A stretch of DNA of 64,000 nucleotides from Bacteroidota bacterium (GTDB taxonomy: Bacteria > Bacteroidota > Bacteroidia > UKL13-3). The stretch covers positions 1,129-65,128 of the forward strand of contig JAWXAU010000091.1 in the NCBI GenBank assembly GCA_034439655.1. The letters run 5' to 3'. Positions 1,841 to 46,870 of this stretch are shown piece by piece. Position 1 is the first letter of the stretch. Every line of letters starts with the position of its first letter. The translations under genes were made by a program, and so were the position numbers. The notes beneath the pieces were generated by a model. It saw nothing but the letters and a program-made list of their open reading frames with translations. It was not told where the DNA came from and did not search any database.

Positions 1841-4018
1841 TTATTCCACAACCAATTCTACTGCACCCTTTCTACAATCTGTGAAATTACTTTTATATAG
1901 CAGAGCTTCTTTTTTCCACCTATCAATATAATAATTCGAATTGCTGAGGTCTGCTATATAATGCCGGGCTTTCACCTTGCCAGCCAAGTCTTCCCAATGT
2001 TTCATAGGTTTGTGGCTTATGATTGCAATATCTACTGAATCCTTAAATGCTGTAGTTGGGGTTTGGTCAATAATTAAAATCTTTTTGCCATTAAAAATAT
2101 ATAGGTTCTTATAATTTTGTAAGCGATTAGTTGTATGTTTTTGTGTGTCATTCAACGCATACAAGTTCTTTTCGGTGGCACCCATATCAACCCAGTGTTT
2201 TTGAAATTTAAACTTGAGAGTGGCTTTATTATATAATATATTGGTATCGCCCACTGCGGTTAAATTGTGTGAATCGAAGAAACCCACGACAGTCTTGCCC
2301 TGTATGGCATAAACAAATATTTTCTTTTGTTGTTGCCATTGGTAGTTTTCTATCATTTTTGTGCACAGAAAAACAACCATAAAAAGGGATGCGGTATAAA
2401 AAGTATACTTATTTTTATGGGTAAAAAATTGGGTAACGAAAAAGAAAATTATCAATAATAAAAGTGTTTGCCAAAAACCGATACTCACCCCTTCGAAAGT
2501 AGCATAGGGAATTTGACCAATAAATTTAACTGTATCATCTGTCCATTTGATTAAATAGTCCAAAGCAATGCCCATACTGCTTGCCAGCAAGGGAATGAAA
2601 GAAAACGCTACCAATAATAATCCGATATAAGTTATAATAGTTGAAAGCGGAATAATGAGCAAATTGGAGATGAGAAAATAATTAGGAAATTGTCCGAAAT
2701 AGTAAAAACCTAGAGGTGAGGTGGCCAATTGTGCAGCAATAGATACCGCGGTAATATTCCATACTTGGTTCGTAAACCAATTATTAAAAGTAAACCAGCT
2801 ATAGATACGTGGATGTAAAAATACAATACCCAATACCGCCAAGTATGAAAGCTGGAAACCCACGTCGTACAATGAGTAGGGATTGATGAGCAATAATATA
2901 AAAGCTGAGGCTGCAATAGAATTATATATGTTCGTATTGCGGTGGAATGTCTCCGCTATGATAATAATCGTAAACATCAATGCTGCCCTATTTACTGATG
3001 GAGATAGACCCGTAATTAAAGCATAAAACCATAGCGTAACTACTATAATACAAAACCTCAAAATACGCAATGATTTCTTGCGGGTGAGAAAACCCAATAA
3101 AGCTTTTAATACAAAGTACAATATGCCTACATGCAAGCCCGAAACTGCCAATACGTGCAGGGTGCCCGTATCTGCATACGCCTCCACCAAATCCTGCGAC
3201 AGGTCTTCTCGATAACCAAAAATTAATGCAGCGGCCACACCCTTTTGTTCATCGCCTGGAATATAGTTTTTATAGAGTCCTACTATATACTTTTTGATGG
3301 AATAGAATAAATTATCTAATACATGTGATGAATCTTTTCCCACCATTTCCCATTCCCCATCTCGAGCAAAAACTTGATAACTATAACTATTTATTTTCAT
3401 ATACCTGTTATAGTCAAACTCGCCCGGGTTCAATGGTTTGGGGATTTCAATCGGTTTGCCACTAAGCAATAAAATAGAGCCATGCTCAAGCTGTATAGCA
3501 TCACTATCTTTGGGCAAGTATAATAATATATTACCACTGGCATAGGTGTAATTACTATCATTTAATACTGCCAAAACTTTCGCTTTTGCCCGCACTGATT
3601 TTTCTCGTGGTACTGCATTTTCTACCAGCTCAACTTTTATATATTTTTCATCCTTTTGAAGTCTAACAAAATGATCATTTTTATAACTATCAGCTTGTGT
3701 AATGGGCAATAATAACCCCAAAATAATGAATGCTAAATTTAAGCAAACAGTATATATTACTTTTAGCTTTCTTACGAATTTGCTTTGATAAAAAACTAAT
3801 ATAAACAATATACAAACCAAGCCTACAAATACATATTGTAAATAATCGAAAGCCCAAGTAAAGTAAGTAGATAAGGCAATTCCCAATACCAAGGGCAGCA
3901 CCATACGCACAAAAGGCACTTGATGCCAAGGGTTTATATGTTGCGTTTGTATAATACGTTCTTTATTATACTGACGAACTCTAAAAAATTGTTGTATAAA
4001 GTTAATGAGCCACTTCAT
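1841..4018 (-). CDS. comEC: DNA internalisation competence protein ComEC/Rec2
   Basis: 725 aa polytopic membrane protein carrying the ComEC motif ADTGTLHVLAVSGLHVGIL. Confidence 0.8.
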   Translation of the reverse strand: MKWLINFIQQFFRVRQYNKERIIQTQHINPWHQVPFVRMVLPLVLGIALSTYFTWAFDYLQYVFVGLVCILFILVFYQSKFVRKLKVIYTVCLNLAFIILGLLLPITQADSYKNDHFVRLQKDEKYIKVELVENAVPREKSVRAKAKVLAVLNDSNYTYASGNILLYLPKDSDAIQLEHGSILLLSGKPIEIPKPLNPGEFDYNRYMKINSYSYQVFARDGEWEMVGKDSSHVLDNLFYSIKKYIVGLYKNYIPGDEQKGVAAALIFGYREDLSQDLVEAYADTGTLHVLAVSGLHVGILYFVLKALLGFLTRKKSLRILRFCIIVVTLWFYALITGLSPSVNRAALMFTIIIIAETFHRNTNIYNSIAASAFILLLINPYSLYDVGFQLSYLAVLGIVFLHPRIYSWFTFNNWFTNQVWNITAVSIAAQLATSPLGFYYFGQFPNYFLISNLLIIPLSTIITYIGLLLVAFSFIPLLASSMGIALDYLIKWTDDTVKFIGQIPYATFEGVSIGFWQTLLLLIIFFFVTQFFTHKNKYTFYTASLFMVVFLCTKMIENYQWQQQKKIFVYAIQGKTVVGFFDSHNLTAVGDTNILYNKATLKFKFQKHWVDMGATEKNLYALNDTQKHTTNRLQNYKNLYIFNGKKILIIDQTPTTAFKDSVDIAIISHKPMKHWEDLAGKVKARHYIADLSNSNYYIDRWKKEALLYKSNFTDCRKGAVELVVE

Positions 4019-4053
4019 TTAGTGGCCAAAAGTAAATGAGAAAAATCATAATC

Positions 4054-4199
4054 CGTCATTCTGAGTCTCGTCACACAATAATCTTGATAATAATCATGAG
4101 TTTTTAAGTCGAGGCGAAGAATCTGTTCAACGTATGTAGGTACTACAATTGTCCTCCCATCCCAAAAGATTCTTCGCGGGAAGCCCGCTCAGAATGACG
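4054..4199. repeat. MITE-like palindromic intergenic element, CGTCATTCTGA family
   Basis: Termini cgtcattctgagtc ... gctcagaatgacg are inverted. Internal inverted arms cgaagaatctg / agattcttcgc. Sits between comEC and lpdA. Related copies occur at 41379, 52393, 55044, 55807 and 59222. Confidence 0.7.
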
Positions 4200-4208
4200 T
4201 TAGGGCTT

Positions 4209-5597
4209 CTACAAATGAATACATTCTCCATACGCATCGGCAGTAGCTTCCATAATAGCCTCGCTCATAGTAGGATGTGGATGTATCGATTTTAAAATTT
4301 CGTGTCCTGTGGTTTCAAGACGGCGAGCGACAACGGCTTCGGCAATCATTTCGGTAACGTTTGCACCCACCATGTGGCAACCTAACCATTCACCATATTT
4401 GGCATCGAATATTACTTTTACCATACCATCTTTTGCTCCCGAAGCACTTGCTTTTCCGCTTGCACTAAATGGGAAACGACCTACTTTAATATCATAACCC
4501 AATTCACGGGCTTTCTTTTCAGTAAGACCCACACTGGCTACTTCAGGCCAGCAATAAGTGCATCCTGGTATATTTTCATAATTGAGTGGTTCTGGATTGT
4601 GACCCGCAATTTTTTCTACACATATAATACCTTCTGCACTGGCTACGTGGGCAAGGGCTGGACCTTTCACTATATCACCAATAGCATATATACCATCAAT
4701 ATTTGTTTTATAAAAATCATCAACCAATACTTTTCCCTTATCGGTTTTTATACCTAATGTTTCCAGTCCAATATTTTCTAAATTTGTTTGTATTCCTACT
4801 GCTGATAAAACAATATCACATTCTACAACTTCTTCTCCTGTTTTGGTTTTTATTTTTACTTTACAACCTGTACCACTTGTATCAACTGAAAGCACCTCCG
4901 ATTCGGTCATAATGCTTATTCCTGATTTTTTATAAGTGCGTGCAAGTGCTTTTGATATTTCTTCATCTTCCAGCGGTAATATACTTGGTAGAAATTCTAC
5001 AATGGTAACTTTGGTTCCTATACTATTATAGAAATACGCAAACTCAGCACCTATTGCTCCTGAGCCTACTACTACCATACTTTTGGGTTGGACAGGCAGT
5101 ACCATTGCATCAGTATAACCTACTACTTTTTTGCCATCCATCTTTATATTTGGTAATTCTCGACTACGAGCACCTGTGGCAAGTATAATACTTTTTGCTT
5201 CGTAGTTTGTTTTTTTACCATCGGCTCCAGTTACCTCAAGTTTGCCTGTGCCAACTAGTTTTCCATAGCCTACGATTACTTCAATTTTATTTTTCTTCAT
5301 CAAAAAAGAAATGCCTTTGCTCATTCCATTTGCCACATCGCGGCTACGTTTTATAATATTGGCAAATTCTGGTTTCGATTCGCCGACTGTGATTCCATAG
5401 TCGGCAGCATGTTTTATATATTCAAATACCTGTGCCGATTTAAGCAAAGCTTTGGTAGGAATACAGCCCCAATTGAGGCACACACCGCCCAATTCAGATT
5501 TTTCGACGATGCCTACTTTCAAACCTAGTTGGCTAGCTCTAATGGCTGCTACATAACCGCCCGGGCCACTGCCCACTACTAAAATATCAAAATTCAT
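4209..5597 (-). CDS. lpdA: Dihydrolipoyl dehydrogenase (E3)
   Basis: 462 aa. FAD motif ILVVGSGPGGYVAAIRASQLG and redox-active disulfide GGVCLNWGCIPTK. Confidence 0.9.
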   Translation of the reverse strand: MNFDILVVGSGPGGYVAAIRASQLGLKVGIVEKSELGGVCLNWGCIPTKALLKSAQVFEYIKHAADYGITVGESKPEFANIIKRSRDVANGMSKGISFLMKKNKIEVIVGYGKLVGTGKLEVTGADGKKTNYEAKSIILATGARSRELPNIKMDGKKVVGYTDAMVLPVQPKSMVVVGSGAIGAEFAYFYNSIGTKVTIVEFLPSILPLEDEEISKALARTYKKSGISIMTESEVLSVDTSGTGCKVKIKTKTGEEVVECDIVLSAVGIQTNLENIGLETLGIKTDKGKVLVDDFYKTNIDGIYAIGDIVKGPALAHVASAEGIICVEKIAGHNPEPLNYENIPGCTYCWPEVASVGLTEKKARELGYDIKVGRFPFSASGKASASGAKDGMVKVIFDAKYGEWLGCHMVGANVTEMIAEAVVARRLETTGHEILKSIHPHPTMSEAIMEATADAYGECIHL

Positions 5598-5743
5598 ACT
5601 GCTTGTTTATTAATTAATTTGGGCTGCAAATTTAACTCAAATCACGCTATAGAAAACCTATCGCATCTAACTATTTCATTTTCTATAACTTATATTTGTT
5701 TCTGAGGTATTTATGCCGAGAAAAAAAATATCCCAAAATAATA

Positions 5744-9934: not shown

Positions 9935-12532
9935 TTAAATCCCTAATTGAAACCCTATAGTAGGCGACCCCAATCCTGGACCCATGCTAATATGTTCTAC
10001 ATCTGCGGCAGTCAAAGTTTTCACCATTTCGGGAGTTCGATCCTCTGCTTTCATTGCAGCCAATCGTAAGTTCTGCTGTTTTACTGCATCATCCATTAGT
10101 TTCCTTACCGCACGTGCATTGCCAAAGAATTTATCGCGTTGTGTCCACAAGTTTTCTAATAGTTTTTCTAGCATCGTTTTCGCATCTGCATCGGGCGTGA
10201 TGCCACGTTCGGTTAGCATTTTGGAAGCTATTAATTTCAATTGTTCCAAATCGTAATCTTCAAAAACCATCATACGGTCGAAACGAGATTTAAGTCCAGG
10301 GTTGGATTCTATAAATCGTGTCATCGGTTCTGTATAACCTGCAACAATTACAATAAATTCGCCGCGGTTATCTTCCATCCGTTTTAATATAGTTTCTACG
10401 GCTTCTTTTCCAAAATCATTATCGCTGCCATGCAGTGCATAAGCTTCGTCAATAAACAAAACTCCGCCCATTGCTTTGTCAATCATTTCTTTAGTTTTCA
10501 AAGCTGTTGAACCTATATGGTTTCCTACCAATGCTTGTCTATCACACTCCACCAAATGTCCGCGTTCCAATATTCCCAAAGCTTTATATATTTGTGCGAG
10601 GATACGTGCCACCGTGGTTTTCCCTGTACCAGGATTGCCTGTAAATACAGCATGTAGGTTGAGCAAACTGCGTAAATCTTTTCCTGTTTCTCTATAATAC
10701 CTAACGAGTTTTACAAGTTCATCAATTTCTGTTTTTGTTTTGTTAAGGCCTACCATATTACTAAGTTGTAATAATGAATCACGCAACAAGTCTTCATCAA
10801 CAGGTATGCTTGCAATCTCACGATTTTTCTTTTCGAAGATGGGCACCAAATCGGCCACTTCAAGAGCCATCAAATTTTCTTTCGATAATTCTTCGGGGTT
10901 GGGCATTTGCATAATACGCAATCCCAAATTCATTTTTGCCTCATCCAATATATTATTGACTAGTCGTGCATTTCCAAAATTTTGGTTACGGGCACGGTAA
11001 GCCTCTACCAATTTTTTATACATAAAAACTTGTGCATCGGGACTAAACTCCACCATGCGTTTTTGAGCAGCATATAAAGCTATTTTTTCAAGCTCGTCGG
11101 GTTTATAATCGGGGTATTCAAAAGTCATTTGAAAACGCGATTTGAGACCCGGGTTCGAGTCTAAAAAATTATTCATTTGTTCAGGATAACCCGCCACCAC
11201 AATAGCTAAATCGCCTTCGCCATCACTCATTTCACGAACCAATACTTCTATTGCTTCTTTACCAAAATCTTTGCTGTCGTCGTCTTTTCGTGAAAGACTA
11301 TAGGCTTCGTCAATAAATAAAATGCCACCTCTGGCTTTTTTAATAGCTTCTTTAGTTTTAGGTGCTGTTTGCCCAATAAATTCCGCCACCAATTCACTAC
11401 GGTCGGCTTCATATACATGGCCTTTACTCAACAAGCCTAAGTTATGATATATTTTGCCGAGCATGCGTGCCACAGTTGTTTTTCCTGTTCCTGGATTTCC
11501 TGTAAATACTGCATGTAAATTAATTTTATCGGTATCCGTAAATCCTTTTTTGCGGCGAAGTTTTATAAAGTTAAGATAGCTTGTATAGTCGTGTACTTTC
11601 TTTTTGATACCGTTTAAACCAATGAGTCCGTTCATCTCACTCATCAATTCCTCGAACGATCGTCCGCCACTTACTGCAGGCAAAGATTTATCTTGTAATT
11701 TATTCCTGCTAGGTGTAAAATATATTTGTTCGTCGTCAATTATTTCTACTTCTTCAATTCCAATCTCAAAAGGAATTACTGCCACAATTTGATTCATAAA
11801 AACCAATTCCACAGTATAGATATCGGTGCTCCAACTTCCCTTAATATCACTTCCCCAACCGACAGTGCAGTTTATTTCCTCATCGCCGGGGTATATAAAT
11901 AATAGTTTATCGACCGAGCCTTTAAGTTGGCCACTCACTGTTTTGAAATTGAATATCATTTCACAAGCCCAGTAATCGTGCTCTTTCAATAAGTTTTTGG
12001 CATTGAGCTCTACCCATACATAACGGGTATCAACACTATTAAAAGTTTTAAGATACGTGCGTTCATGCTCGGGCACATTGGCATCGGGGCCTTCATATAT
12101 CTTAATCTCATTGATATCGAAATAAGGATTAACATGGGCATTGGCAAGGCCATTATGCTCTACATAAAAACTACGCTCGGCAGCCATTTTATTTTCTATC
12201 CATGCCTCCCAACGGTAGGAGCCACGTTTCCAATAATTGCCTTTGTTTTTAACGCCCCAGCCTTCTCTCACAAATACCACACTGTCTTCCTTTTTCACGG
12301 TACGGTCGCAGTTCAAACTACAAATTTCTGCACCATCGGGACCAAAACATTTGAGACGAATATGCACGTCCCAATCTTGTTCGTCGAACAATTTATTAAA
12401 GAACGAAAATTCACAATATATATAGGACAACTCGCTCTCATCATATACCAAACGGTAGTTCTTCTCATTATTTGCCAACCACTCGGTGCTGGCAAAAATC
12501 CGCAAATCCTTAAACTTGTGTTTCATATCCAT
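9935..12532 (-). CDS. Large AAA+ ATPase with two tandem CbxX/CfxQ(SpoVK)-type modules and an unassigned ~330-aa N-terminal domain
   Basis: 865 aa. The block AVFTGNPGTGKTTVAR...LFIDEAY...GYxExM...NPGLKSRF occurs twice (aa ~340-590 and ~610-860). The N-terminal third has no match I can name. Confidence 0.7.
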   Translation of the reverse strand: MDMKHKFKDLRIFASTEWLANNEKNYRLVYDESELSYIYCEFSFFNKLFDEQDWDVHIRLKCFGPDGAEICSLNCDRTVKKEDSVVFVREGWGVKNKGNYWKRGSYRWEAWIENKMAAERSFYVEHNGLANAHVNPYFDINEIKIYEGPDANVPEHERTYLKTFNSVDTRYVWVELNAKNLLKEHDYWACEMIFNFKTVSGQLKGSVDKLLFIYPGDEEINCTVGWGSDIKGSWSTDIYTVELVFMNQIVAVIPFEIGIEEVEIIDDEQIYFTPSRNKLQDKSLPAVSGGRSFEELMSEMNGLIGLNGIKKKVHDYTSYLNFIKLRRKKGFTDTDKINLHAVFTGNPGTGKTTVARMLGKIYHNLGLLSKGHVYEADRSELVAEFIGQTAPKTKEAIKKARGGILFIDEAYSLSRKDDDSKDFGKEAIEVLVREMSDGEGDLAIVVAGYPEQMNNFLDSNPGLKSRFQMTFEYPDYKPDELEKIALYAAQKRMVEFSPDAQVFMYKKLVEAYRARNQNFGNARLVNNILDEAKMNLGLRIMQMPNPEELSKENLMALEVADLVPIFEKKNREIASIPVDEDLLRDSLLQLSNMVGLNKTKTEIDELVKLVRYYRETGKDLRSLLNLHAVFTGNPGTGKTTVARILAQIYKALGILERGHLVECDRQALVGNHIGSTALKTKEMIDKAMGGVLFIDEAYALHGSDNDFGKEAVETILKRMEDNRGEFIVIVAGYTEPMTRFIESNPGLKSRFDRMMVFEDYDLEQLKLIASKMLTERGITPDADAKTMLEKLLENLWTQRDKFFGNARAVRKLMDDAVKQQNLRLAAMKAEDRTPEMVKTLTAADVEHISMGPGLGSPTIGFQLGI

Positions 12533-12631: not shown

Positions 12632-13687
12632 ATGAATATTAATAATATTACCGAGCTTCTTGGCAATCAGGCCAATAGCCTACTTGGTCATAAGGCCATC
12701 ATTAGCAAAGACCTCTTGCACCAGCCAGGTCCCGATTTTGTGGATCGTGTTTTTGCTCAAACCAACCGTAATACTCAGGTATTGCGTAGTATCCAAAGCA
12801 TTTACGACCATGGCCGTTTGGGCCGTACAGGTTATGTGTCAATCCTTCCTGTAGATCAAGGAATAGAACATTCAGGTGGTGCTTCATTTGCACCCAACCC
12901 CATTTATTTCGACCCTGAAAATATTATTAAACTTGCTATCGAAGGCGGTTGCAATGCTGTTGCTTCTACCTACGGAGTATTGGCTGCATGCTCACGTAAG
13001 TATGCTCATAAAATCCCTTTCATCGTAAAAATCAACCACAACGAAATTCTCACTTACCCCAATAAATTTGACCAGGTAATGTATGGCTCTGTTGAAGAAG
13101 CTTGGAATCTTGGAGCTGCTGCGGTAGGTGCTACTATATATTTCGGTAGCGAAGAATCGACCAGGCAAATACAGGAAGTGGCGGCGGCTTTTGAGCGTGC
13201 CCACGAGCTTGGAATGGCTACGGTGTTGTGGTGCTATTTACGTAATAATGGTTTCAAAAAAGAGGGTGTCGATTACTCTGCCGCTGCCGATTTAACAGGA
13301 CAAGCCAACCATTTGGGTGTAACTATTCAAGCAGATATTATCAAACAAAAATTACCTACAAACAATGGTGGTTATAATGCCATTAACTTTGGCAAAACAC
13401 ATCCAAAAGTATATAGTGAACTATGTACCGATAATCCGATTGACTTATGCCGTTATCAAGTAGCAAACTGTTATATGGGCCGTATGGGTTTAATAAACAG
13501 CGGCGGCGAAAGCAAAGGTGCTAGCGATATGGCTGAAGCAGTAATGACAGCGGTGGTTAACAAACGTGCGGGTGGTTGTGGTTTGATATCGGGTCGCAAA
13601 GCTTTCCAAAAACCCATGACTGAAGGTGTTACTTTATTGAACGCTATTCAGGATGTGTATTTGGAGAAGGGGATTACTTTGGCGTAA
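12632..13687 (+). CDS. fbaB: Class I fructose-bisphosphate aldolase (DhnA/FbaB type)
   Basis: 351 aa, collinear with E. coli FbaB: [24 protein letters not shown]...[12 protein letters not shown]...KQKLP...INSGG...[16 protein letters not shown]. Confidence 0.9.
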
Positions 13688-13713
13688 GGATAATTAAGAA
13701 AATTATATGGATA

Positions 13714-13744
13714 AAAGCCGTTTCTCTGAGACGGCTTTTTTACT
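13714..13744 (+). terminator. Rho-independent terminator after fbaB
   Basis: aagccgtttctctgagacggctttttta: a GC stem (agccgtttc / gagacggct) followed by a T-run. Confidence 0.6.
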
Positions 13745-13871
13745 AAAAAAGCATCATTGATATTAGGTTTTTTCGACGGGCATCTTTATGTTTTTGTAGC
13801 AACTTCAAACTTATAAAAAATATTGTTGTATAATTATTTCGCTACTTTAACATTAATTTATAATATACTAA

Positions 13872-15023
13872 ATGTGCGAAAACAAACTAATTGACATATC
13901 TAGTTGGCAAAGTGGTAGTAATGATTTCGTTCCAATAGGTAAACGTATAAAGCGAGTTGTATTTGAACCTGAGACAGAAAAATTATACTATTTTAAGGTA
14001 CCTAAAGATAAATATCCTTGGGAGTTTTGGACAGAAGTTATATCATACCAAATTGGACAAAGCTTAGGTTTTAATACCAATTCTTAAACTATAATAGTTC
14101 TCCGCCTGTGGCGGATTAGTTTGTAGAATGGTAATACCGAACTACAATACATTTAGTCCCTTTCTTTTGGACTATTATATATTGAGTTTCGGTATAATGT
14201 ATTGAAATATGAGCCTGCAATTTCTAAAGATTCTGTCGGGTGTTTATCTCCTTCTATGGTAGGAGAGCATGAAGAATTAATACACGGGCAGCAGTTCCTT
14301 ACACAAATATTGCCAACTTTTGAAACTAAAAAAGGGATAGATCATAACTTTCAGTTGATAGAATCTTTCTTTAGAGATAGTGAACATGAAGTTTCTTTCG
14401 AAGAATTTATACACATGTTAGTCTTTGATGCGATAATAGGTAACAGGGATAGGCATCAACAGAATTGGGCTATGATAAGAGGGGTTGAAATAGATGTGAA
14501 AAATCTAAAGTTAAATGCAAAAATATTTAGTCAAGATGCATCAGTATTAAAGATAATATGGCGATTAATAGGATTGGGGCTGTCGAGAAAAACGAATAAG
14601 TCAATTGCAAATATGGAAATAGAAATAAACGAACATTACAGATTTTCTCCCTTTTTTGACAATGGAAATTGTTTGGCATATAATATCATTGAATCCAAAA
14701 TTGGTGATATGGTTAAAAACGAAAAGCAGCTTGAAAATTATCTTTTCGGCAATAAAGCAGTAAGTCATGTTAAGTGGGATGGTGCATCAATTCCACATAT
14801 TGATTTACTTAAAAATGTTTCTCGCCATCATAGGGAAGCTGTTTTGACTGGCATTGAAAAGGTTAATCGAAACTTAAATGCTATATCATTTGAAGATATA
14901 GTAACAAACATTGATAATGGATTGGATGTTGTACAAAAGGATTACGTTCTATCTTTGCAGCGGAAAGAATTAATCTGCAAATTATTGAATGCAAGAGTAG
15001 CTAGGCTTTTAAGCAGTTTTTAA
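13872..15023 (+). pseudogene. HipA-like Ser/Thr kinase gene (HipA_C-type) interrupted by a 114-bp in-frame repeat insertion carrying stop codons
   Basis: ORFs 13872..14087 and 14202..15023 are in the same frame. The downstream part has the HipA catalytic motif (IIGNRDRHQQNWAMI; F.PFFDNGNCL). The upstream part carries the nucleotide-binding lysine region (KRVVFEP...YYFKVP...EVISYQIGQSLG). The 114-nt segment between them (14088..14201) opens with an 85-bp repeat copy (14088..14172) that carries TAG stops. Confidence 0.6.
14088..14172. mobile_element. 85-bp MITE-like element, copy A, inserted in the hipA-like gene
   Basis: aactataatagttctccgcctgtggcggattagtttgtagaatggtaataccgaactacaatacatttagtccctttcttttggac. 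About 90% identical to the reverse complement of 46669..46753. The core is palindromic (ccgcctgtggcgg). Confidence 0.75.
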
Positions 15024-15683
15024 ATGGTATTAAACAATATATATATTAGTTGGCGGAAAGGTAAGGGTGGGAACCGTTATCTTATAGGTTTGCTCGAGAG
15101 GCTAACTAGTGGATTTGCCTTTTCTTATATAAAAGAAGAAGTTATTAAGGCGAGAAATGATGGGTTCAAAAATTATCCCGATTTTTCTACTGTGAATTTT
15201 GACCATAAATATACCGGTGATTTAGAAAGAGTTTTTTCACTTAGACTAATGCCCGAGGGGCGACCCGATCGTGAACAGTATCTTTCTTTTTGGGATGCAA
15301 ATAATCCAAAATATGATTGGTTTGACGAATTGGGATTTACCCAAGGGAGATTAGCCACTGATAATTTTGAATTTCTTGCTAAGCTTCCATATTATGATAA
15401 TAATCTAGGGTTCGTAACCGATATAGCCTCACTAACTCATAATCCACTACCTATTGACAAGGTAAAGCAAGGAGACAAGTTAAGATTTGAACTGGACACA
15501 AACCATCTTACAGACCCTAGTGCTGTTAAGGTATATAAAGACTCCGAATTTATTGGTTACATTAAAAGAGGGCATTCATTTTTCTTTAAAGATGCAAACA
15601 GAAACAGATTGAGATTAACGGTTAAGCACATTGAAAAAAATGGAATGGTTAATCAATTATATATTTCTGTAATAAAGGAATAA
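15024..15683 (+). CDS. Hypothetical protein with a C-terminal HIRAN-like domain, translationally coupled to the hipA-like gene
   Basis: 219 aa. The start ATG overlaps the upstream stop (TAAATG). The C-terminal segment GDKLRFELDTNHLTDPSAVKVYKDSEFIGYIKRG matches the HIRAN consensus (G..v.L.rEpdNpyDpnAikV...g..iGYvpr). The N-terminal ~140 aa are unassigned. Confidence 0.55.
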   Translation: MVLNNIYISWRKGKGGNRYLIGLLERLTSGFAFSYIKEEVIKARNDGFKNYPDFSTVNFDHKYTGDLERVFSLRLMPEGRPDREQYLSFWDANNPKYDWFDELGFTQGRLATDNFEFLAKLPYYDNNLGFVTDIASLTHNPLPIDKVKQGDKLRFELDTNHLTDPSAVKVYKDSEFIGYIKRGHSFFFKDANRNRLRLTVKHIEKNGMVNQLYISVIKE

Positions 15684-15728
15684 GAAATATTATAGGACTA
15701 GATTATATAGCCGAAATAACTTTTTATA

Positions 15729-16505
15729 TCAAGGCTTCTCAAACTCACCATAACCATCTGTCAAAATATCAGGTATGGTGTCGGTAATCAAAATTGTATG
15801 CTCAAATTGAGCAGATAATTTTCCGTCAATGGTGCGGGCGGTCCAACCATCTTTGCGGTCTACTTTACTGCGGGCCTTACCTGCATTTATCATGGGCTCG
15901 ATGGTGAAAATCATTCCTGGTTGTAATACAGGGCCTTTATTGCGTTCATGCTCAGCATGATTCACTTCAGGGTCTTCGTGGTATTTTACGCCTACCCCAT
16001 GTCCGCAAAATTCATATACTACCGAGCAACCCTGTGAAGTGGCATAACGGTTTATTTCAAATCCAATATTGCTAAGTCGGTTGCCGGGCTTGCATTGCAT
16101 AATGCCAATGCTCAAACATTCTTTGGCAACTGCTATTAGTCTTTTTGCATAATCGCTACAGGGTCCTACTTCATACATGCGGCATGAATCACCATAATAT
16201 CCTTCAACAATTAAGGCCACATCAATATTTAATATATCTCCGTCTCTTAATTGGTAAGGACCCGGAACGCCGTGACAAATCACATCATTAACTGAAGTGC
16301 AGCATGATGCTGGAAAACCACGGTAGCCTAGGGATGCAGATTTTGCTCCATGGTCATTCACATACTCACGGCATTTTTTATCGATATCGGCTGTGGTAGT
16401 TCCGGGCTGTGCGTACTGCCCCAAATATTTAATGGTTTCGTAAGTAAGAATGCTGGCCTTGCGGATGCCTTCTATTTGTTCAGGAGTTTTGATGAGGATT
16501 GCCAA
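15729..16505 (-). CDS. map: Type I methionine aminopeptidase
   Basis: 258 aa. Pita-bread fold with metal-ligand residues in DGDILNIDV...HGVG...EHTILIT. Confidence 0.9.
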   Translation of the reverse strand: MAILIKTPEQIEGIRKASILTYETIKYLGQYAQPGTTTADIDKKCREYVNDHGAKSASLGYRGFPASCCTSVNDVICHGVPGPYQLRDGDILNIDVALIVEGYYGDSCRMYEVGPCSDYAKRLIAVAKECLSIGIMQCKPGNRLSNIGFEINRYATSQGCSVVYEFCGHGVGVKYHEDPEVNHAEHERNKGPVLQPGMIFTIEPMINAGKARSKVDRKDGWTARTIDGKLSAQFEHTILITDTIPDILTDGYGEFEKP

Positions 16506-46601: not shown

Positions 46602-46870
46602 ATTTTTTTCGTCATACTGTTCGCCGCGGCGAATCGTCAATAGGTAGTACCGACACTCAATATATAATAGTCCAAAAGAAAGGGACTAAATATAGTAGTT
46701 CGGCATTACCATTCTACAAACTAAATCCGCCACAGGCGGAGAACTATTATAGTTTAAGAATTGGTATAATTATTATATTACCAATAATTAAAAGACGAGG
46801 CGAAGAATCTGCTGGGGAAGTAAGCATCTTCCAACCAAAACAGATTCTTCGCAGTAAAGCAATTTTCATA
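46602..46870. repeat. Composite repeat cluster: GTCATACTG/TTCGCCGCGGCGAA unit + 85-bp element copy B (46669..46753) + CGAAGAATCTG hairpin (46796..46856)
   Basis: The 85-bp copy B is the reverse complement of 14088..14172 (~90% identity). gcgaagaatctg ... cagattcttcgc are inverted arms. The ORFs called here (46598..47002 etc.) are repeat translations. Confidence 0.7.

Follow-up and report, generated by a model that had tools for sequence, protein, structure and literature searches.

A probable hipIN-type kinase-HIRAN module of Bacteroidota interrupted by a miniature inverted-repeat transposable element

Identity of the two-gene module

The window analyzed here, a 64,000-nucleotide stretch of contig JAWXAU010000091.1 from a Bacteroidota bacterium, contains a two-gene module located between the genes for an aldolase and methionine aminopeptidase (map). 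We conclude that this locus is very probably a module of the hipIN type, equivalent to the PADLOC candidate system PDC-M03, in which the first gene (gene 1, hipI-like) encodes a HipA-type kinase and has been disrupted by a miniature inverted-repeat transposable element (MITE), and the second gene (gene 2, hipN-like) encodes a protein that joins a HipS-like domain to a HIRAN domain. An earlier note on this DNA had taken the gene 2 protein to be novel and the gene order to be unlike that of known Hip arrangements, and neither view can be sustained. The protein has the architecture of HipN of hipIN (PMC8262856) and matches PDC-M03B in PADLOC, and the order seen here, in which the kinase precedes the HipS-HIRAN protein, is that of hipIN (PMC8262856). 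No new principle is revealed by the locus; the arrangement has already been described, and this copy is a pseudogenised Bacteroidota member.

Three open reading frames (ORFs) on the same strand lie between the aldolase and map genes, at 13872-14087 (71 aa), 14202-15023 (273 aa, with a TTG start), and 15024-15683 (219 aa). The first two share one reading frame and match consecutive portions of the PADLOC PDC-M03A profile, the 71-aa ORF covering positions 2-65 (E 4.3e-12) and the 273-aa ORF the profile from position 66 onward (E 3.2e-36), and they are therefore pieces of a single interrupted kinase gene. The annotated 273-aa ORF that begins at TTG 14202 is an artefact of the gene split. When restored, the kinase has 342 residues, with its Gly-rich loop (residues 22-27) close to the N-terminus, and it contains the catalytic strings IIGNRDRHQQNW and FFDNGNCL. 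The residues that are invariant in a 41-member alignment of the kinase family are G23/R25/K27, K42, D146, G150-N151-x-D153-R154-H155-x-x-N158-W159, and D223-x-G225. The window kinase keeps the family-invariant N-terminal set of W12, G23, R25, K27, K42, E51, W53, E55, and G62, and a direct check against the family invariants shows that its catalytic loop and FFDNGN site are also intact.

Support for the assignment of gene 1 is provided by profile and structure comparisons. With an E value of 2e-15, the kinase family profile matches CtkA (JHP940) of Helicobacter pylori along most of its length, and an AlphaFold2 (AF2) model of orthologue P0048 (predicted local distance difference test, pLDDT, of 90) is matched best by CtkA (template modeling (TM) score of 0.81), and then by Legionella HipT and the HipA proteins of E. 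coli and Shewanella, with a Foldseek probability of 1.0 for all of them. CtkA (PDB 3akj/3akk) is thus the closest solved kinase both by profile and by fold. This protein, which carries the label of a proinflammatory kinase in the title of its PDB entry, has been described as cell-translocating, and we know of no HipS-HIRAN partner for it. Moreover, no Pfam match to Couple_hipA or HipA_N was obtained for the kinase at E <= 1. These data show that gene 1 encodes a short Ser/Thr kinase of the HipA superfamily that, as the earlier note had maintained, lacks HipA N-subdomain-1. The Gly-rich loop and the conserved Lys are retained, as are the DxHxxN catalytic loop and the DxG metal site. The closest intact orthologue is kinase P0048 (343 aa, locus L081), which has 85% identity and the same start. 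Ratios of nonsynonymous to synonymous substitution rates (dN/dS) against the orthologous pair are 0.073 (kinase) and 0.039 (gene 2), consistent with purifying selection on both genes apart from the insert.

Gene 2 is translationally coupled to gene 1 and starts within the TAAATG overlap with the kinase stop codon (TAA 15021-15023), and the same overlap is present in the L081 orthologue. Its product, which is identical to the NCBI entry "hypothetical protein SGJ10_06000 [Bacteroidota bacterium]", is matched by PADLOC PDC-M03B at E 2.1e-26 over positions 5-219 of 248, and the family is strongly conserved along its whole length in a 27-member alignment. The AF2 model of the protein (pLDDT 91.2) comprises a HipS-like domain (about residues 1-120) and a HIRAN domain (about residues 128-219). 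In Foldseek comparisons with the PDB, the C-terminal domain of this model finds the HIRAN domain of HLTF (E 1.9e-4) and the N-terminal domain finds 7ab3_B (TM 0.72), which we checked to be the 103-aa Couple_hipA/HipS chain of HipBST. In addition, the HIRAN core of gene 2 (D...A...G-Y-x-K) aligns to the HLTF segment NPYDKNAIKV...GHLKK; D164, A167, G178, and K181 are invariant in an 18-sequence subset, and G178 and K181 are invariant in all 27 sequences. In the HLTF structures, the Asp that aligns to D164 of HipN contacts the DNA 3'-OH. The predicted structure shows, then, an N-terminal domain folded like HipS, the protein that provides HipA N-subdomain-1 in trans, followed by a HIRAN domain. 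The length, start, and C-terminal HIRAN domain given for gene 2 in the earlier note are all borne out, and its loose guess that the N-terminal part might have a HipS-like fold is supported by the model.

One further similarity of HipN was seen at the level of sequence profiles. The top PDB match of the HipN profile, ahead of the HLTF HIRAN domain, is the C-terminal domain of the yeast Hsp70/Hsp90 co-chaperone Cns1 (6hfm, E 1e-5 to 3e-4). The match covers HipN residues ~127-193 (window 15402-15602), and Cns1 appears in neither structure search. It may reflect a distant fold relationship or chance, and we do not take it as a lead to function.

No ORF of at least 40 aa is present in the ORF list for the 184 bp ahead of the kinase start, a segment that includes the AT-rich leader, and the module therefore has no gene for a HipB-like helix-turn-helix (HTH) protein, in agreement with what had been noted before.

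Disruption of the kinase gene by a MITE

The insert in the kinase gene is flanked by a duplicated TA dinucleotide (14072-73 and 14195-96). Together, the element and one TA add 123 bp, and the kinase reading frame is therefore kept, although in-frame stop codons are introduced at 14085, 14124, and 14154. The 5' ORF of the kinase runs into the insert and ends at 14085-14087. The break falls after codon 68, so that the Gly-rich loop and Lys42 are parted from the catalytic loop. Deleting positions 14074-14196 yields GGTTTTAATGTATTG, and the orthologue in L081 reads GATTTTAATGTATTA at this point, which is an empty site; a MITE has thus inserted cleanly here and duplicated 2 bp of target. Another copy of the element, which lies outside the module (Table 1), identifies the kinase insert as a dispersed repeat. 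At least 12 further copies, mostly flanked by matching TA or TT, were found in six contigs (L088-L093) of metagenome Ga0163151 using an exact 41-mer. The element has the properties of a MITE, being short and non-coding, with terminal inverted repeats (ATACC.../...GGTAT), a target-site duplication, and multiple dispersed copies. Its DNA is predicted to fold into two hairpins (-23.3 kcal/mol, z = -7), and a terminator scan locates a terminator-like hairpin within it at 14101-14115. Some of the metagenome copies are longer, at about 160 bp, and contain an additional internal segment.

Four other public contigs hold an identical gene 2; two of these span the MITE, and the other two end inside its right end. 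Because the same lesion is found in these contigs, the insertion is real rather than an assembly artefact, and it is fixed as far as has been sampled. The low dN/dS values of both genes imply, in turn, that the insertion is recent. An intron, an intein, or programmed read-through was also considered as an explanation for the insert and was rejected, given the three stop codons, the terminal inverted repeats, the TA duplication, and the location of sister copies between genes.

Most likely, then, the module is inactive in this genome because the kinase cannot be made, and hipN is left as an orphan, in line with the claim in the earlier note that the kinase had been inactivated by a repeat insertion. 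Expression of hipN may also be lowered by the terminator-like hairpin of the MITE and by the loss of coupled translation. The locus is, in effect, a natural knockout of the toxin gene by a MITE in which the partner gene is retained. Its value lies mainly in correcting the annotation and in pointing to intact orthologues (P0048/P0002) because the copy in the window is non-functional; a defined MITE family is a further output.

Conservation and genomic context of the pair

One genome per species was scanned with gene 2, which gave 144 relatives, and the neighbors of gene 2 were inspected in the best 80 of these 144 loci. Almost all of the 80 are from Bacteroidota, including Flavobacterium, Chitinophagaceae, Cytophagales, Sphingobacteriales, and Bacteroidales. 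A match to the restored kinase (tblastn) lies directly upstream of hipN on the same strand in 74 of the 80 loci, and most of these matches are near full length, although six run off a contig end and five of the kinases are decayed. Of the six loci that lack a kinase match, two have no upstream DNA, and a third (L040) has only 335 bp of it, in which no kinase match is found. The kinase-HipN pair is hence conserved as a unit across Bacteroidota, and the co-occurrence of kinase and HIRAN protein that the earlier note had proposed to look for is seen. More broadly, among 1.84 billion cluster representatives, the HipN family counts 1276 members when the threshold is E <= 1e-3, of which 577 remain at E <= 1e-10. 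One protein, P0160, is a 560-aa fusion of kinase and HipN (E 5e-63 against the HipN profile), a Rosetta-stone arrangement that hints at an interaction between the two proteins.

The five decayed kinases stand beside intact hipN genes. Those in L064 (99-1429) and L057 (5477-6064) are truncated, and those in L050 (4926-5983), L020 (5210-5945), and L022 (3764-4499) are frameshifted. These loci suggest, within a survey seeded on HipN, that the toxin gene is recurrently lost first, and the presence of intact HipN beside decayed kinases fits a toxic first gene.

In L064, a gene that by eye resembles a DDE transposase lies upstream of the truncated kinase. Three loci carry hipN with other neighbors in place of the kinase. 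In L008 (3965-6672) and L026 (4158-6642) the gene is preceded by an AAA-type ATPase gene (recognized by eye) and a small gene, and in L052 (3299-6642) it follows type I hsdM-hsdS genes on the same strand. These three contexts may represent alternative partnerships of the HipS-HIRAN protein.

Genes for restriction-modification (R-M) systems recur near the relatives. In L081, the closest intact pair is located just downstream of genes for a ResIII helicase and an N6_N4_Mtase and adjoins a DUF433/DUF5615 pair. Among 129 neighbor proteins drawn from about 22 loci, 7 match type I methyltransferase models and 4 match specificity-subunit models, and an HsdM-like gene is located upstream in 10 of the 80 loci. 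The kinase-HipN pair is also carried by 17 predicted viral contigs from IMG/VR (L094-L110), in many cases near a contig end. In one of these (L110, pair at 3937-5660), the neighboring genes appear by eye to encode a DNA methyltransferase, a nucleotide pyrophosphohydrolase, an ImmA/IrrE-type peptidase with an HELGH motif, and a cell-wall amidase, an arrangement that suggests a prophage-borne "moron".

Relationship to known systems

[quoted passage not shown] These authors proposed that the HipS-like domain neutralises the kinase and that HIRAN may sense phage DNA ends and trigger abortive infection (PMC8262856). The 14 hipIN modules that they describe are from Actinobacteria, Firmicutes, Proteobacteria, and Cyanobacteria (PMC8262856), and Bacteroidetes are not mentioned in the text of the paper or in the supplements searched. 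The locus adds to this set a sizeable Bacteroidota branch (144 species-level genomes, and the 577 family representatives at E <= 1e-10) together with structure-level confirmation, from predicted models, of the HipS + HIRAN architecture. The module shares with hipIN a short core Hip kinase without N-subdomain-1, a downstream gene for a HipS-like domain plus HIRAN, the absence of HipB, and a kinase-first order. It differs in the length of the restored kinase, at 342 aa versus the 279-321 aa reported for the small kinases, and in that this copy is disrupted by a MITE.

PADLOC-DB 2.0 already lists the pair of kinase and HIRAN protein as candidate system PDC-M03. The adjacent genes in the window match the A and B models along almost their entire length, and relatives of the module are found beside type I R-M genes, which fits how the PDC candidates were found; Payne et al. 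found them inside BREX, DISARM, and type I R-M systems, and they are candidates only (bioRxiv 10.1101/2024.01.29.577857). In the window, however, the A gene is broken into two ORFs, and no defence system encloses the locus.

Other members of the Hip group are more distant in arrangement. In comparison with HipBST of E. coli O127 and Legionella HipST (PDB 7ab3, 7vkb, 8ezr), the module has no HipB, its HipS-like gene is downstream rather than upstream of the kinase gene and is fused to HIRAN, and the sequence similarity of HipN to HipS is marginal. HipL, a single-chain kinase-HipS-HIRAN protein (PMC8262856), shares all three domains and their order, and P0160 represents such a fused form, whereas here there are two ORFs parted by TAA 15021-15023 with the TAAATG overlap. 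Classical hipBA is not represented, given that there is no upstream HipB ORF and no Couple_hipA match, and that the kinase has 342 aa versus ~440 aa for HipA. HipA and HIRAN pairs adjoin diDNase genes in Gram-positives, according to a 2025 paper in Nucleic Acids Research that cites both the hipIN and the PDC sources (PMC11706625). A third gene of this kind, as found beside the actinobacterial HipA/HIRAN pairs (PMC11706625), was ruled out for the window, where the flanking genes encode the aldolase and methionine aminopeptidase. HipAD, a different pair of the HipA family, has been validated as anti-phage (PMC13092281).

Proposed mechanism and alternative explanations

The earlier note had suggested a toxin-antitoxin or phage-defence-type module, and this is still the best reading, with a mechanism that is put forward by analogy. 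The module would have been acquired by a Bacteroidota genome and its toxin gene destroyed afterwards. In intact copies, the kinase would act as a growth-arresting toxin and would phosphorylate an essential translation factor, in analogy to HipBST and to the action of HipA on GltX and of HipT on TrpS, and in keeping with the proposal of Gerdes et al. (PMC8262856). HipN's HipS-like domain would then inhibit the kinase, standing in for the missing N-subdomain. HIRAN could couple this inhibition to DNA by sensing free 3' ends that arise from phage infection, which would release the kinase and lead to abortive infection; alternatively, it might replace HipB as the DNA-binding part or regulator. We judge a toxin-antitoxin or abortive-infection mechanism of the intact copies to be somewhat favored, and the explanation as a whole, which blends this mechanism with the much firmer identification of the module, to be probable. 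As a candidate toxin-antitoxin and anti-phage system, hipIN/PDC-M03 would link a HipA-type kinase to the sensing of DNA ends.

Several points weigh against this explanation. The Pfam check that the earlier note had called for gave scores below the cut-offs for both domains (25.8 bits versus 30.5 for HipA_C and 23.2 bits versus 24.7 for HIRAN), and on single sequences this formally refutes its proposal; the two assignments are nevertheless settled because the family profiles and the predicted structures match. The HipN family aligns to E. coli HipS with an hhalign probability of 14% over 21 columns, and it is because of this weak similarity at the sequence level that the HipS assignment rests on predicted structure. 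The likeness to hipIN is, moreover, one of architecture and not of placement in the HipI clade by a tree, and CtkA, the nearest solved kinase, is a secreted H. pylori kinase and not a toxin of a toxin-antitoxin system. The module is flanked in the window by housekeeping genes and not by a defence island. Being seeded on HipN, the survey counts cover loci with HipN and hence not kinases without it. Finally, the literature searched contained no experimental work on hipIN or PDC-M03 modules.

The pair might instead be a plain addiction or stabilisation toxin-antitoxin pair without a role in phage defence, with HIRAN acting only as an operator-binding, autoregulatory part in the way that HipB does in hipBA and hipBST. 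A HipS-like antitoxin domain is present, the window module sits among housekeeping genes and, given that there is no HTH gene, DNA binding must come from elsewhere if the operon is autoregulated. Characterised HIRAN domains, however, bind DNA 3' ends and not specific operators (as cited in PMC8262856), relatives of the module adjoin or lie within R-M systems and occur in phage contigs, and the PADLOC candidates were chosen for being embedded in defence systems. We regard this alternative as unlikely. A very unlikely one is that the kinase is a signalling or effector enzyme like CtkA and its partner an adaptor for DNA damage or the replication fork, making the pair a regulatory module of DNA repair. 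CtkA is indeed the best match of the kinase in sequence and structure, and HIRAN is best known from the fork remodellers HLTF and Rad5, both of which are structural matches of gene 2. Against this, the N-terminal domain of the partner has the predicted fold of HipS, a dedicated kinase inhibitor, and the distribution of the pair is patchy, mobile, and tied to R-M systems and prophages. Furthermore, the kinase has repeatedly decayed beside an intact hipN gene, as would be expected of a toxin, in the window and in L064, L057, L050, L020, and L022, and the G+C content of the module is unlike that of its flanks.

With respect to the copy in the window, the split kinase could still be functional if the 71-aa and 273-aa fragments complemented one another, if the MITE were excised in part of the population, or if the insert were an assembly artefact. 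The insert is exactly 123 bp long, so that the frame is kept, and the two fragments are otherwise undamaged with a dN/dS of 0.07. The three in-frame stop codons, the separation of the catalytic loop from the Gly-rich loop and Lys42, and the lack of any start but TTG for the second piece all speak against a functional kinase, however, and the insert is present in all four other public contigs of this allele, with no empty-site variant among them. Such retained function seems highly improbable. It is tempting to extend the hipIN reading by supposing that the Bacteroidota hipIN clade is an abortive-infection system in which HIRAN reads phage 3' ends, and that the repeated loss of the kinase (in this window, L064, L057, L050, L020/L022, and L008/L026/L052) reflects selection for orphan HipN, either as "anti-toxin immunity" against phages or mobile elements that bear hipI or as a stand-alone DNA-end binder for other defence systems, such as type I R-M systems and AAA ATPase pairs. 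We consider this extension speculative and quite unlikely to hold.

Locus layout and surrounding sequence

The coordinates of the module, its neighbors, and the two copies of the MITE in the window are collected in Table 1.

Table 1. Features of the module and related elements in the window
Feature	Position	Strand	Remarks
Aldolase gene, DeoC/LacD-family (FbaB-type)	12632-13687	+	5' neighbor of the module
Intrinsic terminator of the aldolase gene	13713-13744 (approx.)	+	5' boundary of the module; RNA fold
AT-rich operon leader	13745-13871	+	G+C about 0.30
hipI-like kinase, whole interrupted gene	13872-15023	+	two ORFs in the same frame
Kinase, 5' part	13872-14073	+	residues 1-67 and first two bases of codon 68; Gly-rich loop IGKRIK, conserved Lys42
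MITE-like element	14074-14194	+	121 bp, inside the kinase gene; terminal inverted repeats ATACCAATTCTTAA ... TTGAGTTTCGGTAT
Kinase, 3' part	14197-15023	+	last base of codon 68 to stop; catalytic loop D..GNRDRHQQNW, Mg-binding FFDNGN
hipN-like gene (gene 2)	15024-15683	+	intact, 219 aa; start overlaps kinase stop, TAAATG 15021-15026
map, methionine aminopeptidase gene	15729-16505	-	3' neighbor of the module
Second MITE copy	46648-46767	-	95% identity over about 121 bp (blastn, alignment); spacer between two convergent genes

The boundaries that the earlier note had given for the module, between fbaB and map and behind a terminator and an AT-rich leader, are upheld. The terminator has a 12-bp stem, a 3-nt loop, and a UUUUUU tail, and folds with -15.5 kcal/mol (z = -4.1) in an RNA fold of 13700-13755; it is absent from the output of a simple terminator scan. 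The Bacteroidetes-type TAnnTTTG motif was not found in the leader by a motif scan. The G+C content of the module is 30-36%, versus 42-44% in the flanking aldolase and map genes, so that the module in the window looks like a small AT-rich insert. NCBIfam gave no match for any of the three ORFs, and Rfam nothing meaningful for the module region or the MITE.

Two promoter-like sequences inside the kinase coding region were considered and set aside. A perfect sigma-70 consensus (TTGACA-17-TATAAT, 12/12) is present on the + strand at 14656-14684, 340 bp upstream of hipN. Because Bacteroidota generally use a promoter consensus other than TTGACA/TATAAT, and because the total number of such sites is within the expectation from shuffled sequence, the match is probably fortuitous in an AT-rich gene. 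A TAnnTTTG motif at 14950 was likewise rejected as an internal hipN promoter because it is at chance level (~0.75 expected in a rough estimate from base composition).

On the other side of the aldolase gene and divergent from it, the minus strand (9935-12532) encodes an 865-aa protein with ~300 unassigned N-terminal residues, which are followed by AAA and AAA_lid_6 domains twice in tandem.

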